This document shows positions 3,891 to 39,786 of a stretch of 64,000 bases of DNA, one piece after another (position 1 is the stretch's first letter; each line of letters starts with the position of its first letter). This stretch comes from an uncultured Rhodothermales bacterium (GTDB lineage Bacteria > Bacteroidota > Rhodothermia > Rhodothermales > VXPQ01). The stretch spans positions 349 through 64,348 of the forward strand of contig CAZART010000010.1 of the NCBI GenBank assembly GCA_964487555.1. The letters run 5' to 3'. The position numbers and the translations under genes are program-made. The notes under the pieces were generated by a model that was given only the letters and a program-made list of their open reading frames with translations, did not search any database and was not told the DNA's origin.

Positions 3891-6076
3891 GAATTATCCT
3901 CCCTGTCGGACCCTCCGGCCGCCGCGCACTTCCCGCGTGTCCTTCGATCCGCCCGACGTTCCCCACGTGTCCCGCAGTCCGCCACACGTTTCCGGCGTGT
4001 CCCGCAATCCGCCACACGTATCCCGCGTGTCCCGCAATCCGACGCACGTATCCGGCGTGTCCCGCAATCCGACGCACGTATCCGGCGTGTCCCGCAATCC
4101 GACGCACCTTTCCCGCGCGTCCCGCTATTCGCCGCGCCTTTCTCTCCGCTCCCGAGATACGCCGTTCAATTCTCACCGGTCTACCGGCGCGCATCCTCCT
4201 GATCCTCTTGCTCGCCGGGCTGGGCGCGCAGGGCTGCAGTCCGGCCGAATCACGCGAGGATGCGGTTCCCGCGGAAGAACGGCCCGCCTTCACGCTCGTT
4301 GCGGAAACCGGGGCGGACACGTCGTTCACCTACACGGTGGACGTGCGCGACTCCCTGGTGGTCTTCGGCCGCGGCCGCGACGTTGTGGTCGTGAACGTTG
4401 CCGTTCCCTCGCACCCGCGCGTGCTCGCGTTCGTGACGTTGACGGACGCCGTACGCGACGTCGTTCTTCGCGGCTCGTATGCTTACGCGGCCGCCGATGC
4501 CGGCGGTCTCCACATCATCGACCTGTCGGATCCTGCCGCTCCGGCATTGAACGGCCGGATGCTCTTCGGCGATCGCGCATACGGCGTTGACGCGGCCGAC
4601 GGCCGCGCCTATGTGGCCGCTCGCTCAGAGGGGCTTCGGGTTCTTGATGTGTCGGATCCTCAGATGCCCCTCGAAATCGGCCATATCCTCACGCCCGATG
4701 AAGCGGTAGACGTCGTCGTCCGTGGCGACGTCGCGTACGTTGCCGCCTGGTACGCGAGCATGCGCGTGATCGACGTCGGCGATCCCGCGGCGCCGGAAGA
4801 AGTAAGCTTCGCGGCCTATGACAGCTACGACAACGGCGCTGCATGGTCCGTTCACGTGGATGGCGACGTGGGTGTGCAGGCGGTGCCCGACATGGGCCTC
4901 CGCACCGTGGACGTCTCCGATCCTCGTGACGTGAAACTCTATAAGGTCTATCGCGGCCTCTTCGCCCCGATCGGCGCGTTTGTCAGCGGGCGCACGGCAT
5001 ACGTGGCCGACCAGGATGCGGGATTCCGTGTGCTGGACCTCGCCGATCCCAGGATGCCCGTCGAGATCGGCGCGCTCGATCTGCCCGGCTCGGCCATGTC
5101 CTCTGCTCTGTCCGGCACGATCGCTTACGTCGCCTCGCGAGAGGGCGGCCTCCGGATCGTCGACGTATCGCGTCCCTACGCCCCCCGGGAGATCGCGCAC
5201 GTAGATGCCTCAGACGACGTCGCCGACGTCACTTTGATCGGGGACACGCTCGTTGCAGCCGGGCGCCAAAACGGCGTGTTGCTGCACCGCGAGACGGCGA
5301 ATCTCGAAGGGGCCGGATTCATAGCCGGGCCCTCAACCCGCGTAGCGTCATACGGAAACGTACTTCTCGTCGGCGGTCCGAACCGAATCGGCATCTACGA
5401 CCGCTCCGACGTCGCTACGCCCTTGAGCGTGGCATCGGTGCAGGGAACCGTCCACGGCCTGGCCGCCAATGACGATGTCTTGATTGCCGCGACCGAGCGC
5501 TTCGGGATTCGAATTTGGGCGACGAATACCCTCCGCGAAATGGGGGCCTTCGAACCCGATCGGGCGCTCCTCACCACCTCCAATCGAACGCAAATGCTGC
5601 GAACCCCCGTCGCGGCGTGGGACGTGCTGCTCGACGGCCGCCGCGTCATCGCCGCCTTCGATGACGGCATTCGTCTGCTCGACGTCTCGACGCCGTCACG
5701 CCCGACCGTCATCGGTATGCTGGCCACGCCACAGCGCGTTTACCGACTTGCGCTGCGCGGATCGGAGCTTTTCGCCGCCTGCGACGACGGCCTTCGCGTC
5801 ATAGACGTCTCCGATCCGGCCCAGCCGACCGAGCTCTCCTTCCTGAAAACGCCATCCTTCGCCACGGCCATCGCCTTCGACAACGATCATCTTTACGTGG
5901 GTGATCTCAGCGGCATCGTCACCGTCGTCACGACCACCCTCCCGCTCACGCCCCTCGCTGAAGTGAAGGTGGCAGACCGAATCCTGGGTCTTACTACATG
6001 GAACGGAGGCCTCGCTGTCGCCGCCGGTCCGCAAGGAGTTCGCGTCGTGGCCGACCTCCTTCCAAGCGACGACTAG
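3887..6076 (+). CDS. LVIVD-repeat beta-propeller protein with lipoprotein-like hydrophobic segment; the start is uncertain
   Basis: There are more than 10 repeats of the type YAYAAADAGGLHIIDLSDPAAP / AYVAARSEGLRVLDVSDPQMP (LVIVD family). The ATG at 3887 overlaps the upstream TGA (ATGA). The segment RILLILLLAGLGAQGC at about 4190-4240 has no canonical start codon between it and the repeats. Confidence 0.6.
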   Translation: MRIILPVGPSGRRALPACPSIRPTFPTCPAVRHTFPACPAIRHTYPACPAIRRTYPACPAIRRTYPACPAIRRTFPARPAIRRAFLSAPEIRRSILTGLPARILLILLLAGLGAQGCSPAESREDAVPAEERPAFTLVAETGADTSFTYTVDVRDSLVVFGRGRDVVVVNVAVPSHPRVLAFVTLTDAVRDVVLRGSYAYAAADAGGLHIIDLSDPAAPALNGRMLFGDRAYGVDAADGRAYVAARSEGLRVLDVSDPQMPLEIGHILTPDEAVDVVVRGDVAYVAAWYASMRVIDVGDPAAPEEVSFAAYDSYDNGAAWSVHVDGDVGVQAVPDMGLRTVDVSDPRDVKLYKVYRGLFAPIGAFVSGRTAYVADQDAGFRVLDLADPRMPVEIGALDLPGSAMSSALSGTIAYVASREGGLRIVDVSRPYAPREIAHVDASDDVADVTLIGDTLVAAGRQNGVLLHRETANLEGAGFIAGPSTRVASYGNVLLVGGPNRIGIYDRSDVATPLSVASVQGTVHGLAANDDVLIAATERFGIRIWATNTLREMGAFEPDRALLTTSNRTQMLRTPVAAWDVLLDGRRVIAAFDDGIRLLDVSTPSRPTVIGMLATPQRVYRLALRGSELFAACDDGLRVIDVSDPAQPTELSFLKTPSFATAIAFDNDHLYVGDLSGIVTVVTTTLPLTPLAEVKVADRILGLTTWNGGLAVAAGPQGVRVVADLLPSDD
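3901..4170 (+). repeat. Nine phased 30-bp tandem units (consensus TCCGGCGTGTCCCGCAATCCGACGCACGTA)
   Basis: Units start at 3901, 3931, ... 4141. The central three (4021-4110) are nearly identical and the outer ones are degenerate. The array is in frame with the ATG at 3887 and translates as (P)ACPAIRRTY decapeptides. Confidence 0.9.
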
Positions 6077-34913: not shown

Positions 34914-36239
34914 ATGCCCGACCTTGCCGAAACCCACGTCGTTACCTGCTTTCTGCGTGCCGGCACTAACGTACTGCTTCTGCTCAGGAGCCACGACGTA
35001 GGTACCTACGCAGGAAAATGGGGCGCCGTGGCCGGTCACGTAGAGGGCGACCCCGACAGATCAGCGTTTCGCGAGATACGTGAGGAAACGGGCTTTGAGG
35101 CACCCGATCTTATTCGGCGTGGCGAGCCGTTCGAAGTACGTGACGCGCGTCTAGGAAAGCGCTGGATCGTGCATCCGTATCTCTTCGACGTCCCAAACCG
35201 CGTACCCAAACTGAACCGGGAATCCTCGAAGTACGAATGGGCGCCCCCCACGGAAATCCTACGGCGCGACACCGTGCCCGAGCTGTGGACCTCCTATCGG
35301 CATGTCGGCCCGACGCCGACTTCTATCCGCCAGGACACCTTTCACGGCTCGGCTTACCTCTCGATGCGAGCTGTTGAGGCCCTTCGTGACCGAGCGGCGG
35401 AGCTCGCACTCGCAGCGACAGGCGGTGTCGCAGGCGACGCAATGAGCTCGGATGCCGGCAATCAACGGCCGCCCGGCGACTCGGCCCGAAGCGCATCCTG
35501 GCAGGAGCTATGCGCACTTGCCGAATCGCTGCTTGCGAGTCGCCCGTCGATGACGGCCGTACACCACCGCGTAAACCGCGTGATGTATGCTGCCGCCCAA
35601 CACGCAACGCCGAGATCTGTCGAAGCAGCGGCGGCCGAGATATTGGCTCGTGCCATGCGGACCGACGAGCAAGCGGCCGCGACGGCGGCCCGATTAGTCG
35701 AGGGCAAGCGCGTGCTTACGCTCTCCCGGTCCGGGACCGTTGTGGCGGCTCTGGAGGCGGCGCACGCCGATGTTATCATCGCACACTCGTTGCCGGGCGG
35801 TGAAGGCCGTGCGATGGCAGAACGCCTCGCCGCTAACGGCGTACGCGTGGCCATGTGCTCCGACGCCGGCATAGCGGCCGCGTGCGATCATGCTGACGTA
35901 GTGCTGGTCGGAGCCGACACCGTCCTCGCCGACGGCTCGGTCGTGAACAAAGTCGGAACCCGCCCGGCCGCCCTCGCCGCTCGCGCCCGGCAGATTCCCT
36001 TCTACGTAGCCGCCGCAATCGATAAAATATCGCCGAAAAAGAACGTTGACCTGGAGCAGGCACGTCGAGACACGCTCTATGACGGGGATGCATCCATCGA
36101 AGTGATCCATCCCCTCTTCGAAACGACTCCGCCGGAGCTGATTACGGCGATTATCACCGAGGAGGGAACGATCGCCCCCTCCGACGTCGCGGATTTGGCC
36201 GATGAACTTCGACGGCTCGAGTCGTGGCATTGTGGATGA
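34914..36239 (+). CDS. Fusion protein: N-terminal NUDIX hydrolase + C-terminal eIF-2B alpha/beta/delta-like (ribose-1,5-bisphosphate / MTR-1-P isomerase family) domain
   Basis: NUDIX box GKWGAVAGHVEGDPDRSAFREIREETGF. The C-terminal half has VLTLSRSGTV, VIIAHSLPGGEG, VLVGADTVLADGSVVNKVGT and IPFYVAAAIDKI. Confidence 0.7.
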   Translation: MPDLAETHVVTCFLRAGTNVLLLLRSHDVGTYAGKWGAVAGHVEGDPDRSAFREIREETGFEAPDLIRRGEPFEVRDARLGKRWIVHPYLFDVPNRVPKLNRESSKYEWAPPTEILRRDTVPELWTSYRHVGPTPTSIRQDTFHGSAYLSMRAVEALRDRAAELALAATGGVAGDAMSSDAGNQRPPGDSARSASWQELCALAESLLASRPSMTAVHHRVNRVMYAAAQHATPRSVEAAAAEILARAMRTDEQAAATAARLVEGKRVLTLSRSGTVVAALEAAHADVIIAHSLPGGEGRAMAERLAANGVRVAMCSDAGIAAACDHADVVLVGADTVLADGSVVNKVGTRPAALAARARQIPFYVAAAIDKISPKKNVDLEQARRDTLYDGDASIEVIHPLFETTPPELITAIITEEGTIAPSDVADLADELRRLESWHCG

Positions 36240-36263
36240 TCCGGCGCGCCCGTCCACGCCGCG

Positions 36264-36917
36264 CTAGAGCCCCAGCTTGTTCAGTATGTATTCGATCCGG
36301 CTTCTAAATCCGAGACCGTATCCATAGCGCTCGGCGGTGCCGCGTCCGAAATGGGTGACGTAGTCGTCGATGGGGAAGTCTTCGAGCCTGTACCCCTCCT
36401 CGGCGGCCGCGCGGAAATTTTCGAGTGCGGGCAGGCCGTGATGAATAAAGGAGGGGAGTTTGAGGTAGATCTCCCGCTTGACCAGCATATAGGCGCTTAC
36501 CAGGACAGGTATACCCGTCGGCGCAGCAAACCCGCGCCTATTGACGTAGGCAATCTTACCCACTCCATAGACGTTATCCTCGGCGCCGAGCATCGCCATT
36601 CGCTCGAGAAATCCCCCGCGTACGGTTTCGGTGTCGCTGTCAAAAACGTAGACGAAACGACGATCAAGCTCGCGGAGAGCCAGATCCATAGCCGGTCCGT
36701 GGTAGCGATTCTCCGACAGAAGTTTCGTTCGAATGGATGGCCCGAGCTCGCGCTGGAGCGTGCGGATGACGTCGGGGGAGCCGTCCGAAGACCCGTTGTC
36801 GACAATCAGAAGAGGGACGTTCGGATATTCGCGATTGAAGCTCCGGACGGCCGTTTCCAGCAAGTCCGGCGTCTGGAAGTTGACGACGGCAGCGGAAACG
36901 CGTTGCTCGATTGACAT
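36264..36917 (-). CDS. Family 2 glycosyltransferase
   Basis: VSAAVVNFQTPDLLETAVRSF and PLLIVDNGSSDGS, then the DxD-like FDSD. Confidence 0.8.
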   Translation of the reverse strand: MSIEQRVSAAVVNFQTPDLLETAVRSFNREYPNVPLLIVDNGSSDGSPDVIRTLQRELGPSIRTKLLSENRYHGPAMDLALRELDRRFVYVFDSDTETVRGGFLERMAMLGAEDNVYGVGKIAYVNRRGFAAPTGIPVLVSAYMLVKREIYLKLPSFIHHGLPALENFRAAAEEGYRLEDFPIDDYVTHFGRGTAERYGYGLGFRSRIEYILNKLGL

Positions 36918-36975
36918 TCGAGAGTAAGGAGGAGGGCCTGAGGTGCGCGCGGCAGGATCGGTGCGGGCATAAACT

Positions 36976-36995
36976 AAAAAACGCCGACCGCGGCG
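36976..36995 (-). terminator. Intrinsic terminator closing the non-coding unit
   Basis: Minus-strand CGCCG-CGGU-CGGCG followed immediately by U6 (plus-strand A6 at 36976-36981). It lies 59 nt upstream of the GT2 start. Confidence 0.45.
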
Positions 36996-37224
36996 AGGCA
37001 GTCAGCGCTTTTTAATTCCCTCAACGCGACGGCCTCCCTTGAGTCAGGTCCTGCCGAAGCAGCATCCTTTCCCAGGTGGGAGGCAAACTCTCATGCCGGT
37101 ATGGAGGCCGGCTGGTAGCTACGCGCACGGTGCCCGGTTTCCCGGTCACGGTACGTCTAAACCGCATGGGCAGACGGTTCAGGAGCTACGGACTTTCGAT
37201 GTCCCGTGCATGCGTTTTCACACA

Positions 37225-37620
37225 CGCTCTCCACGGCAAGCCGATTCGTACAGCAACCTGCTTCACCGTGCGTCGGCTCTCCGCATCGGCGTTTCCGCCG
37301 AAGCCTCATCGAGCTCTTGCACTCCACAGGTGGCCGCCGTTCGCTTATCTGCTTCACCGAGCGGCGCTCTCCACAGCAGCGATTGCATGCTTGCTTCACC
37401 GAGCGGCGGTGCTCCGCGTTGCATCTTTCGATGCGCTGCTTCGACACATGCCGCTCTCCACAAGCTGCGCCGGATCGCTCGCCTCAACAAGCATCGCGCT
37501 CGGCAGTCTCTCTTTCGAGTCGCTGCGTCAACACGCTCTGCTCTCGGCGGTGCGATCCCATCGCACGCTGCATCAACAAACGTCGCTCTCCACAGACAGC
37601 TTATTCCGCTGCCGCTTCAA
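37225..37620 (-). repeat. About nine degenerate 43-50-nt modules; minus-sense consensus (C)UGUGGAGAGCG-N4-8-GUUGAAGCAGCG
   Basis: The plus-strand CGCTCTCCAC core or close variants start at 37225, 37275, 37319, 37365, 37409, 37452, about 37503, 37534 and 37584. Confidence 0.8.
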
Positions 37621-37956
37621 CGAGACGTGCGGAGCCGATGCATGCGCAGTATCTTGACGAAGAAGCAGGCCCGAAGGCCGGGTACCTCGTCTTTTTCTGG
37701 CACACAGCCGAAGCTGGAGCCAGTGATAGCTGTGCGTGTCGATGGACTAGCTGCCGATGCTGCGGCCGAAGCCGCTCATCTGCACAGTTGTCACATCGCC
37801 GGCATCCGGCGCGGATATCGTAGCAGGCGAACCTGTACGACCTTCCGGTCGAATACCACATCGTCCCGCATGGTCTTTCGACCAGTGCACGGGCGTCCTC
37901 ATGCAGCCCAGAGTTTTCAGTCGCGTCAAGGAACAGTGCCGTCAGGCACTGAGCCC

Positions 37957-37985
37957 ATTATACCTTTAGACGGCACCCACGTCAA
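37957..37985 (-). promoter_or_regulatory. Sigma-70-type consensus promoter TTGACG-17 nt-TATAAT
   Basis: In the minus sense the -35 TTGACG is at 37985-37980 and the -10 TATAAT at 37962-37957, with an exact 17-nt spacer. The predicted start is near 37950. Confidence 0.5.
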
Positions 37986-38002
37986 GCAGTGACCCCTTCA
38001 AA

Positions 38003-38347
38003 TAGTCCACAATTCGCTAACAGGATATCCACATTGCGTTCGAAGAACCGTTCATAACCAGTGAGGGGACGTACACGGATCTGACGCTAACCCGGACAGG
38101 ATTGACGACTTGCCCTGTGTGGAAATAGACGAGAACGGAGAAGAAGAGAGGGGGCTTAGGACCAAAAAGCCCGGCTTGCCCAAAAGCCGAGCTTCTTGTT
38201 GCCCACCGATGACGCGACTGATGCGATCCCCGCAGGGGTGCTCTAGGCGACATGAGGTAACAGAAAGATAGGAGGTGTATCCCCTTCACGCAAGGGCAAT
38301 AACGGTATTTTATCCACAATGTGACTTTCCCCCACGTTTTATCCCTA
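38003..38347. promoter_or_regulatory. Cluster of DnaA-box-like 9-mers
   Basis: TTATCCACA is perfect at 38310-38318. ATATCCACA (38025-38033) has 1 mismatch. TAGTCCACA (38003-38011), TGTGGAAAT (38118-38126, opposite orientation) and TTATCCCTA (38339-38347) each have 2 mismatches. Confidence 0.3.
38164..38191 (-). terminator. Intrinsic terminator downstream of the rhomboid gene
   Basis: Minus-strand CUCGGCUU-UUGGGC-AAGCCGGG (an 8-bp stem with one G-U pair), then C and U5. Confidence 0.55.
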
Positions 38348-38379
38348 TCGCAATAACGGATCTAAAGGCAGGAACGGCC

Positions 38380-39000
38380 TCAAAATCCCATCTGGCCGAG
38401 GAAGATCGCCAGCGCTCGGGGCTCCAGCAGAACCGTCAACACGAGCCCGCCCAGCGCGCCGCCAATATGCGCCTCATGCGCAATGCCTCCGGTCATACCT
38501 CCCTCCTGCCCCTTTTTCATGGCGTAGATCGAAAGCACCACATAGGCAACCGCAAATACGATCGCCGGAATCGGGATAGGCAGGAAAAAGATGTAGAGCT
38601 TGTGAAAGGGGTAGAAAAGACAGTACCCAAATACCACCCCGCTAACCGCCCCCGAAGCTCCAACGGCCGCATAACTGGCGGTCTTGCGGTGGAGAAGCAG
38701 AGACAGGCCGTGCGCGGCTAGCTCCGCTCCGAAATAGAGCAATAAAAACTTAGCCGGGCCAAGCAGACGCTCTAACTCAGGACCGAAAAAGAAGAGCGTC
38801 AGCATGTTGAATGCAAGGTGCGCCACGCCCGCGTGTACGAAACCGGCCGTGATCAGCCGCTGATACTCTCCATGCTCGAGAATTCGACGGGGCTTAAACG
38901 CGAGCCTGTCAACCAGTGAATGATCGAAGTAAAGGGCATAGGCGCTCACCAGCACGTTGACGAGCAGCAGGAGAATCGTGACAGGTGTTTCGGCAAACAT
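38380..39000 (-). CDS. Rhomboid family intramembrane serine protease
   Basis: HAGVAHLAFNMLTLFFFG, the catalytic Ser in GASGAVSGVVFG and His in AHIGGALGGL. The start is at M21 of the ORF. Confidence 0.85.
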   Translation of the reverse strand: MFAETPVTILLLLVNVLVSAYALYFDHSLVDRLAFKPRRILEHGEYQRLITAGFVHAGVAHLAFNMLTLFFFGPELERLLGPAKFLLLYFGAELAAHGLSLLLHRKTASYAAVGASGAVSGVVFGYCLFYPFHKLYIFFLPIPIPAIVFAVAYVVLSIYAMKKGQEGGMTGGIAHEAHIGGALGGLVLTVLLEPRALAIFLGQMGF

Positions 39001-39078
39001 TCTGCTGACGGAGATAGGGATGGACGTTCTAGCAGTCACACGAGCGGATGCAAGCCACACCCGCCCCCGCGAATCCGC

Positions 39079-39786
39079 TTATGCGGCGACTTCCGCGAAA
39101 TGATTCAGTATCGAACGCCACATGAGCGCCCCATCGCTTCTGCCAAGCACCGGCTCGGCGCAGCGATCCGGATGCGGCATCATCCCCAAGACGTTCCTTC
39201 CCTCATTTACGACGCCGGCGATATTTCGAGAGGAACCGTTTGGATTCGCATCCTTCGTGACCCGCCCCTCACGATCGCAATATCGAAAAACAACCTGGTC
39301 GTTCTGCTCGAGGCGATCGAGAACCTCGTCCGCAGCATAGTAATTTCCTTCGCCATGGGAAATCGGTATCTGAACCACCTGCCCATCCGTCATCGTTCGG
39401 GTGTACGGCGTATCGGCGTTCTCCACCTTTAAGTCCGTCTGCTTGCAGGCGAAGCGAAGCGACGCATTCCGCATCAGTGCACCGGGGAGCAACCCGGCCT
39501 CGCACAGAATCTGAAAACCATTGCAGATTCCGAACACCAACCCTCCTTTATTTGCGAACCGAACCACGTCCTGCATAATCGGCGAAAATCGGGCAATGGC
39601 ACCCGAGCGCAGATAGTCGCCATAAGAAAAGCCGCCAGGTATAACTACGACGTCGACATTCCCTAAACTTTCTTCTTTGTGCCAGATGAACCGGGCCTCC
39701 TGGTCAATAATATGTTTCGCAACGTGGTAGGCGTCGTGGTCGCAATTCGATCCCGGAAAATTGATGATGCCGAACGTGATGGGCAT
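39079..39786 (-). CDS. purQ: Phosphoribosylformylglycinamidine synthase, glutaminase subunit
   Basis: [21 protein letters not shown], the catalytic Cys in [17 protein letters not shown], and GMMPHPDR. Confidence 0.92.

Follow-up and report, generated by a model that had tools for sequence, protein, structure and literature searches.

To our knowledge, few bacterial RNA classes that are large, ornate and of unknown function have been described, and each of the known classes has opened new RNA biology or structural principles. GOLLD, ROOL and OLE form RNA-only homo-oligomers (PMC12286853), and OLE is reported to require a kink-turn (k-turn) for its partner OapC (PMC9723947). The k-turns of RAGATH-18 and drum fold in Mg2+ alone, better than Kt-7; such turns fold with a Kd of 33 uM and in the N3 conformation, which crystallography showed for RAGATH-18 (7EAG), and L7Ae was bound in vitro by each of the four k-turns of this type that were tried (Huang et al., PMC8191799). 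RAGATH-18 itself is a scaffold of the TnpB guide RNA (PMC11061315). In archaeal RNase P, a double K-turn with two copies of L7Ae is proposed to fold back a GNRA-tipped helix (Lai et al. 2017, PMC5499556). Here we describe a locus in a 64,000-nucleotide stretch of DNA from an uncultured Rhodothermales bacterium (contig CAZART010000010.1, positions 349 to 64,348; hereafter the window, in whose coordinates all positions are given unless another locus is named). The 1.46-kb interval between a rhomboid gene and a glycosyltransferase gene (GT2) holds no open reading frame (ORF) with a Pfam domain. It probably contains, on the minus strand, the gene for a previously undescribed, independently transcribed and highly structured non-coding RNA (hereafter the large RNA) with an array of k-turns around a core, accompanied by the gene for a small RNA.

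Homologues were recovered at 11 loci, with 64-88% nucleotide identity over ~1 kb and one distant 545-nt form (L093). The large RNA is ~975 nt long in the window and 545-985 nt in its relatives, which are carried by Rhodothermaceae-like bacteria and related metagenomic lineages (the loci compared with the window bear the numbers L001 and L081-L093). Because gene callers often put spurious ORFs on long non-coding regions, the antisense ORF 37039-37992 was used as the probe of a protein search, and the eight database "proteins" that it matched led to contigs L081-L089. A metagenome scan with an invariant 20-mer from the hairpin at 37157-37181 added L091 and a distant partial locus, L090, which was recovered whole as L093 through its neighbouring protein; a third 20-mer match, L092, was a chance match within eukaryotic homeobox-like coding sequence and was discarded. 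The viral contigs searched gave no match, and exact-protein look-ups of GT2 and rhomboid found none. A genome scan with GT2 as the probe returned one close locus, L001, in a metagenome-assembled genome of Rhodothermaceae (65% identity), which has another upstream gene and no large RNA. Between the window and L082, the RNA domains are 84-90% identical as against 73-79% for purQ, rhomboid and GT2, and between the window and L091 the corresponding values are 75-82% and 67-76%. The large RNA is better conserved than the flanking coding genes; conservation does not extend to the spacer that separates the two RNA genes.

The plus-strand ORF 37039-37992 (317 amino acids) is open in the window and matches those eight database entries, but that it is a genuine gene is hardly conceivable. 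The variable columns amount to 59.5, 62.4 and 60.7% at positions 1, 2 and 3 of its codons, which is no period-3 signal, and 124 of 130 internal indels (nine pairwise comparisons) are not multiples of three. Its frame is interrupted in the homologues, it has no Pfam domain, and the supposed homologous proteins are ORFs that were called, in various frames and lengths, over one and the same RNA locus. An earlier reading of the DNA made from its letters (hereafter the sequence-only reading), which had seen no credible ORF here, is borne out by this result. Stop codons are rare in each of the three frames of the antisense strand (36976-37952, plus) and, because of this, hypothetical proteins have been annotated over the RNA in several databases (P0001-P0009), which should serve as a warning.

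Capped hairpins are genuinely abundant on the minus strand, and only there. Five UUCG hairpins with at least four Watson-Crick pairs exist on this strand, as against 0.01±0.08 in dinucleotide shuffles, and six GNRA hairpins with at least three pairs, as against 0.84±0.96; the plus strand has none of either kind. The minimum free energy is -465 kcal/mol for the minus strand (z -6.2) and -407 kcal/mol for the plus strand (z -4.0). The sequence-only reading had rightly taken the signal as strand-specific and the UUCG hairpins as far rarer by chance. Four of the five UUCG hairpins that it listed were found (the last four of that row in Table 1); the other, at 37297-37305, forms no hairpin and lies in the stem of a GAAA-capped helix (37301-37286), and the hairpin at 37835-37824 had been missed. 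Of the six GNRA hairpins, five are conserved, the exception being the window-specific CGACC-GGAA-GGUCG (37851-37838), a segment that homologues pair otherwise. Its 7-bp hairpin GUGCGAU/AUCGCAC (37566-37550) is not conserved.

The RNAalifold consensus of alignment A2, which consists of 10 full or near-full sequences, has 229 pairs (56 compensatory), to which the 5' hairpin and the terminator were then added by hand. In the final consensus of 247 pairs, 94.8% of the cells are paired, a percentage inflated by the derivation of the structure from the tested alignment, in comparison with 91.2% in shuffles and 34-42% when the partners are slid by 1-3 columns. The pairs changed on both sides number 59, in comparison with 24.6±3.5 in shuffles (none of 500 reached 59) and 4-18 with slid partners, and this two-sided excess over the slid controls is not inflated to such a degree.

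Table 1. Predicted RNA elements, transcription signals and neighbouring genes of the locus (window coordinates).
Feature	Position	Strand	Remarks
Large structured RNA, ~975 nt	37950-36976	minus	homologues 64-88% identity; 247-pair consensus, 59 compensatory pairs
Large-RNA promoter	37985-37957	minus	-35 TTGACG 37985-37980, 17-nt spacer, -10 TATAAT 37962-37957
Conserved upstream motif	38003-38034	minus	TGTGGATA 38033-38026 + TGTGGAC 38011-38005; 20-50 nt 5' of -35 box
Intrinsic terminator	37009-36976	minus	12-bp stem AGCGCUGACUGC / GCGGUCGGCGUU (37009-36980), 6-nt loop, U-run to 36976
UUCG hairpins	37835-37824, 37775-37762, 37716-37705, 37679-37668, 37062-37051	minus	at least 4 Watson-Crick pairs
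5'-terminal hairpin CAGUGCC-UGAC-GGCACUG	37951-37934	minus	L093 has CAGUGCC-UUCG-GGCAC
P1, 5' strand UUCCUUGACGCGAC	37933-37920	minus	pairs with 37030-37017; 14 pairs, 98% of cells paired
P1, 3' strand GUCGCGUUGAGGGA	37030-37017	minus	partner of 37933-37920
Invariant 5' core strand, P2-P5: AAACUCU GGGCUGC AUGA GGAC G CCCGUGC	37916-37887	minus	invariant in 10/10 aligned
Variable 5' sub-domain	37886-37632	minus	one GAAA-capped and four UUCG-capped hairpins; many compensatory changes
K-turn array, central ~410 nt	37631-37221	minus	9 bulged and 9 non-bulged elements, strictly alternating
Closing k-turn, bulged strand B1	37631-37607	minus	C strand CGCACGUCUC, loop GUU, GA 37618-37617, NC strand GCGGCAG
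Closing k-turn, non-bulged strand N9	37243-37221	minus	UUGCCGU-G-GA(37231-37230)-GAGCGUGUG
Module D, double k-turn	37597-37345	minus	outer N1 (GA 37590)/B7 (GA 37355); inner B2 (GA 37574)/N6 (GA 37371)
Module A, double k-turn hairpin	37549-37478	minus	N2 (GA 37545)/B4 (37485); B3 (37529)/N3 (37501); tip CUC-GAAA-GAG
Module B, double k-turn hairpin	37468-37386	minus	N4 (GA 37458)/B6 (37397); B5 (37442)/N5 (37414); tip GCAUC-GAAA-GAUGC
Module C, double k-turn hairpin	37331-37254	minus	N7 (GA 37324)/B9 (37264); B8 (37307)/N8 (37281); tip UCGGCG-GAAA-CGCCGA
Hairpin with 10-nt loop UCUGCCCAUG	37181-37157	minus	loop invariant in all homologues
Rest of 3' domain	37145-37032	minus	three arms and P2 3' strand 37091-37085; recognisable in L093
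3'-domain hairpin CCGG-GAAA-CCGG	37145-37134	minus	consensus helices
3'-domain hairpin GCCGG-CCUCCAUA-CCGGC	37112-37095	minus	loop invariant
3'-domain arm GCCUCCC...GGGAGGC with CUGC-UUCG-GCAG	37084-37032	minus	consensus helices
Companion small RNA, ~96 nt	38258-38163	minus	conserved in 7 loci including distant L093; segments 1, 2, hairpin, terminator
Small-RNA promoter-like site	38293-38265	minus	TTGCGT 38293-38288, 17 nt, TATCTT 38270-38265
Small-RNA segment 1 CCUCAUGUCGCCUAGAG	38257-38241	minus	complementary to 37913-37897
Small-RNA segment 2 UCAGUCGCGUCA	38221-38210	minus	complementary to 37928-37917
Rhomboid gene	38380-39060	minus	Pfam
GT2 glycosyltransferase gene	36264-36917	minus	Pfam PF00535; 59 nt 3' of RNA terminator; neighbour, outside RNA

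The promoter proposed by the sequence-only reading is the sole sigma-70-like site in 36200-39200, with 11 of 12 matches. Both hexamers and their 17-nt spacing are kept in all eight loci that contain the region (the window, L081, L082 with TATACT, L084, L087, L089, L091 and L093), among which the hexamers are fixed and the sequence of the spacer varies; transcription would start near 37950. At the other end, the hairpin and U-run that had been noticed at 36995-36976 are present, and the true stem is larger; it covaries, GACUGC/GCGGUC being replaced by GGCUGC/GCAGCC in L084. The conservation of both a sigma-70-type promoter and an intrinsic terminator points to an independent transcription unit. 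The motif upstream of the -35 box, kept in the window, L081, L082, L084, L087 and L089 and partly in L091 and L093, unlike the spacer that flanks it, is possibly a regulator site or an UP-like element. An invertible promoter (DNA-inversion switch) was also considered, since an inverted repeat flanks the promoter, and was judged unlikely: the orientation is the same in seven of seven loci, the repeat is interrupted, no recombinase gene is adjacent, and one arm of the repeat lies inside the invariant RNA core.

The order purQ, rhomboid, small RNA, large RNA is found in the window, L082, L091 and L093, and the same-strand GT2 gene directly follows the large RNA in the window, L081, L082, L084, L089 and L091, that is, in six of the six close loci with enough flank. 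Together with the lack of a visible conserved promoter between the terminator and GT2, this would suit a very long leader that acts in cis, like an attenuator or riboswitch, to govern read-through into GT2, 59 nt downstream, which was the alternative offered by the sequence-only reading. We regard such a leader as quite improbable. In the distant homologue L093 the promoter, the RNA and the terminator are present and GT2 is absent downstream; this arrangement shows the independence of the large RNA from GT2 in that homologue, and the RNA does not always lie in the 5' untranslated region of that gene. Conversely, the GT2 orthologue of L001 (65% identity) exists without the large RNA. The terminator follows a closed 14-bp P1, and no conserved alternative pairing was noticed, although no systematic search for one was made. 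The size of the array varies threefold, and we know of no leader of ~1-kb size.

The 5' strand of P1 (37933-37920) pairs with 37030-37017, and P1 therefore joins both ends of the molecule. The partner segments of P2-P5 are 37091-37085, 37189-37182, 37193-37190 and 37209-37203. The variable 5' sub-domain is strongly reduced in L093 and L087. The stem of the hairpin at 37181-37157 covaries (U-A to C-G in two sequences, A-U to G-C in L093). Comparison of the homologues shows that the predicted 5'/3' core is nearly invariant and that the array between its two parts varies in size. Two further details of the core may be recorded. The 5' core strand contains UGGGC (37910-37906), the complement of GCCCA in the loop UCUGCCCAUG, which makes a pseudoknot or an alternative pairing possible. 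P1 of L093 (3725-3738 with 4156-4169 of that locus) contains a 4x4 internal loop, UGAA/GGAC, in which tandem G.A pairs are possible; in the close homologues this stretch is made up of ordinary Watson-Crick and G.U pairs.

The array, which the sequence-only reading had not seen, is composed of bulged elements of the type [C strand]-NNN-GA-A-GCAG and non-bulged elements of the type CUGU-G-GA-[C' strand] (CUGU-G-GA-GAGCG type), which we interpret as the opposite strands of nine k-turns. A 3-nt bulge, GA facing AG, and flanking canonical (C) and non-canonical (NC) helices are present at nine sites of the window. The GA dinucleotides of the 18 strands are kept in nearly all cells while the flanking C and NC helices covary, as expected of k-turns. 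A simple k-turn finder gave 26 candidates on the minus strand, two on the plus strand and 6.4±2.8 (maximum 18) in shuffles. The putative topology is nested: B1/N9 closes the array, inside it stand modules D and C, and within D, together with a variable hairpin, stand modules A and B. The modules share one plan: an NC helix leads through a k-turn into a C helix, 11-12 positions long and mismatched at its centre, and a further k-turn, on the opposite strand, leads on into a second NC helix. This last helix has ~10 positions and is GAAA-capped in A, B and C; in D it opens into the junction that bears A and B. The C stem of B1 pairs with 37229-37221 (CGCACG(U)CUC/GAGCGUGUG; three compensatory pairs) and its NC stem with 37239-37233, and the closing k-turn is retained with a different sequence in L093. 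The tip helix of module B has five compensatory pairs. Module C is found in every homologue and has compensatory changes at 15 of 22 pairs (7.5±1.6 in shuffles; the alignment was fitted to the model). A covariance model of it, built from 10 sequences without L093, detects the L093 copy with 61.6 bits and an E-value of 3e-10.

Strands were assigned to partners by joint losses, by deletions and by the poor C stems of other registers. GA is lost together from B2 and N6 in L084 and L087, and from B5 and N5 in L088; a UUU loop in L091 takes the place of everything between the C strands of N1 and B7; and L089 and L093 retain no more than the closing turn and module C, so that the array ranges from three to nine k-turns among homologues. 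A tandem register, N1(B2 N2)B3, N3(B4 N4)B5, N5(B6 N6)B7, hinted at by weak covariance-model hits, was rejected: its C stems pair poorly (mean run 0.6-1.9 pairs), and strands would be orphaned by the GA losses. Local compact hairpins (N1/B2, N6/B7) are possible and less consistent with these data than the nested topology.

In a search of the whole window, Rfam 15 yielded no match at gathering score, and at E-values up to 10 only chance-level matches appeared in 36800-38500. OLE, GOLLD, ROOL, HEARO, raiA, RNase P, tmRNA, 6S, group I/II introns and riboswitches are thus without an Rfam 15 match, and no paper on the large RNA was found in the open-access literature searched. Homologous loci without a coding signature, two-sided covariation, a folding-energy excess that is larger on the minus strand, and the lack of a match to a known family all favour the independent, structured minus-strand RNA that the sequence-only reading had proposed. 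Module C does resemble RAGATH-18 (RF03064) weakly, with 18.8 bits and an E-value of 2.7, far under the gathering score of 44.9 bits, and there are direct repeats at 87-nt spacing. These two features could be read as remnants of a mobile element or a guide RNA (IS607 TnpB reRNA/RAGATH-18, REP/MITE or a CRISPR-like array), which is very improbable. Only the k-turn hairpin matches RAGATH-18, and the flanking genes covered (rhomboid, purQ, GT2 and NUDIX/IF-2B) do not include the tnpB of an IS607 context. In the 64-kb window, the module C model hits array-internal paralogues and nothing besides; Tandem Repeats Finder reports no tandem array, the repeats being too diverged and interleaved. Gene order at the locus is constant, and its helices covary.

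Four turns, the closing one and the outer ones of D, B and C (together the outer turns), have C:G at -1b:-1n, A:G at 3b:3n and G:U at 4b:4n. These key positions equal those of RAGATH-18 and drum, and the outer turns are therefore expected to fold in Mg2+ without protein. Among the inner turns there is more variation, with U.G at -1 and U:G, C:C, G:G or A:G at 3b:3n. At the outer k-turn of module C (37264-37324), 4b:4n alternates among G.U, A-U, G-C and A.C; the A.C of four sequences would be isosteric with G.U if the A were protonated. The main rival on the mechanism is that the array acts as a multi-site platform for a k-turn-binding protein (L7Ae/YbxF-like or other), either as a ribonucleoprotein scaffold or as a protein sponge, a reading that we hold to be doubtful. 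The outer k-turns share more sequence than folding demands (CUGUGGAG ... GGUGAAGCAG, loop G-N-U) across paralogous units and homologues, which would fit a protein partner, as would the L7Ae binding of RAGATH-18-type k-turns, the L7Ae-bound double K-turn of archaeal RNase P and the k-turn requirement of OLE for OapC cited above. However, the C:G / A:G / G:U signature of the outer turns folds without protein, and the similarity among the units may simply reflect recent duplication. A tblastn search found no L7Ae-like ORF in the 64-kb window, a weak test since the queries were approximate and the window is a small part of the genome. The other alternatives weighed here, namely a leader of GT2, a sponge, a mobile remnant and a coding gene, are less likely than such a scaffold or excluded.

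The terminator at 38191-38164, ascribed by the sequence-only reading to the rhomboid transcript, belongs to a separate, conserved small RNA and is not simply the rhomboid one. Its promoter-like site, which is below the threshold of the promoter scan, has hexamers and a 17-nt spacing that are constant in seven loci and a spacer of variable sequence; the conserved 5' end is ACCUCAUG. An internal hairpin between the two segments and the terminator (~38194-38163) both covary. Segment 1 can pair with 37913-37897 at 16 of 17 positions (-25 to -30 kcal/mol), and segment 2 (UCAGUCGCG) can pair with 37928-37917 at 8-14 positions (-15 to -23 kcal/mol), each in seven of seven loci. Altogether, the complementarity covers 26-29 nt of the core-closing strands (17 nt + 10-12 nt). 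In the concatenated alignment of the two RNAs, 97.2% of the cells pair, in comparison with 33-41% when slid. Variable positions of the small RNA still pair by wobble, its single mismatched C is deleted in L087 and L093, and L093 has a matched indel: the target GGG is shorter by one G, and the C opposite it in the small RNA is gone as well. The target segments form the 5' side of the closing helices (the 3' half of P1, P2, P3 and part of P4), so that the core could not close while the small RNA is paired, nor could the small RNA pair with a closed core. As to sequence motifs at the two RNA genes, CCGTTATTGC exists twice upstream of the small RNA (38350-38359, 38296-38305) and in three copies in L093, and TGTGGATA/TGTGGAC lies 5' of both RNA promoters (38314-38321; 38026-38033; 38005-38011); both motifs may be regulator sites common to the two RNAs.

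It could be argued from the bipartite 26-29-nt complementarity kept in seven loci, from the adjacency of the two genes and from the TGTGGATA motif upstream of both that the large RNA serves the small RNA as a sponge or target mimic, or vice versa, its ornate structure being secondary. This we consider improbable. A sponge needs a short target only, which leaves ~900 nt of covarying structure and an invariant 3' domain unexplained, and the target of the small RNA is buried in P1-P4 of the folded large RNA.

As to how the structured RNA with its k-turn array might work, we tentatively suggest, as a possibility short of a probability, a two-RNA system that would have no precedent: a protein-independent double-k-turn particle, compact or homo-oligomeric like those of ROOL, GOLLD and OLE, in which the small RNA gates the closure of the core and the struts are tuned by duplication and deletion. 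In the general mechanism that we propose, the outer k-turns would fold in Mg2+ without protein and make the arms rigid fold-back struts, and the GNRA tips would dock onto the same RNA or another copy to give a compact particle around the conserved core. This core would be the functional centre, with the number of arms (three to nine k-turns) as an evolutionarily adjustable decoration. The 96-nt RNA would pair with 26-29 nt of the 5' strands of P1-P4 and hold the core open; its role would be that of an antagonist or of an aid to co-transcriptional folding. The presence of purQ and rhomboid upstream and, in one clade, of GT2 downstream is a weak hint of an envelope-related role.

Several points weigh against these interpretations. 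The ends of the large transcript are placed from sequence, the k-turns were assigned by sequence rules only, and the 10 sequences of A2 come mostly from one clade. The repeats are mutually similar, so that alternative pairings exist (B4/N4; the local hairpins N1/B2 and N6/B7), and the exact topology of A, B and D depends on motif co-loss in three sequences and on helix quality. The pairing of the small RNA shows no two-sided compensatory substitution, its target being invariant, and the best single complementary stretch has p~0.02-0.12 per locus. RNAduplex, run with the small RNA against the complete large RNA, did not exceed the shuffles (z -1.1 to +1.0); because long loops in a GC-rich RNA give any sequence large energies, this whole-molecule test is uninformative, and it was replaced by ungapped and short-segment tests. 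Fold-back docking, oligomerisation and the link to the envelope are conjecture.

Some additional observations concern the surroundings. A NUDIX + IF-2B / ribose-1,5-bisphosphate-isomerase-like fusion gene (34914-36239, plus) is convergent with GT2, and a tRNA scan of the window and the compared loci found no tRNA genes. In L085 (contig of 969 nt), the 3' end of a tmRNA (929-969; Rfam E-value 6e-10) is fused directly to the 5' hairpin of the large RNA; the junction reflects either a chimera of two abundant RNAs, made in the cDNA or in the assembly, or a neighbouring ssrA gene. In L086 and L088, unrelated sequence abuts the large RNA near its ends.

If the proposed gene is real, the ornate bacterial RNAs would gain in the large RNA a new class, and one from another phylum. 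Its peripheral modules expand threefold about an invariant core, and it would be a natural modular array of up to nine k-turns, a kind of object previously seen only in designed nano-objects, and hence a natural test bed for the folding rules of k-turns. The complementary small RNA offers a ready hypothesis for the control or folding of such an RNA.

Compared with known systems, the outer k-turns share with RAGATH-18 and Kt-7 the C:G helix end, the 3-nt G-N-U loop, tandem G.A/A.G, A:G at 3b:3n, G:U at 4b:4n and the NC pairs CUGU/GCAG. RAGATH-18, however, is a single 71-nt hairpin at the end of an IS607 element, whereas the large RNA would place nine turns in one ~1-kb chromosomal RNA with no tnpB among its flanking genes. 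Helix P12 of euryarchaeal RNase P likewise has two k-turns per helix and a GNRA-tipped long arm that is proposed to fold back (PMC5499556), but its turns overlap and are bound by L7Ae. In the bacterial modules, the two turns lie on opposite strands and have a common 11-12-bp C helix, the arrangement occurs four times, and the NC helix of one turn is not the next 3-bp C helix, as it is in the archaeal-type double K-turn. The synthetic horse-shoe (two k-turns) and triangle (six) also use strand-alternating k-turns as rigid corners (Huang and Lilley 2016, PMC5058347); these artificial objects are joined through 10-bp NC helices, in contrast to the natural modules here, which are linked by their C helices and belong to a branched RNA. 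OLE, GOLLD, ROOL and the raiA motif are similar in being stand-alone, conserved, multi-domain RNAs of 0.5-1 kb with many tetraloops and a fixed neighbourhood, and OLE also contains a functional k-turn. The large RNA differs from all four in its other phylum, the lack of an Rfam match, its k-turn array of variable copy number and its complementary small RNA.

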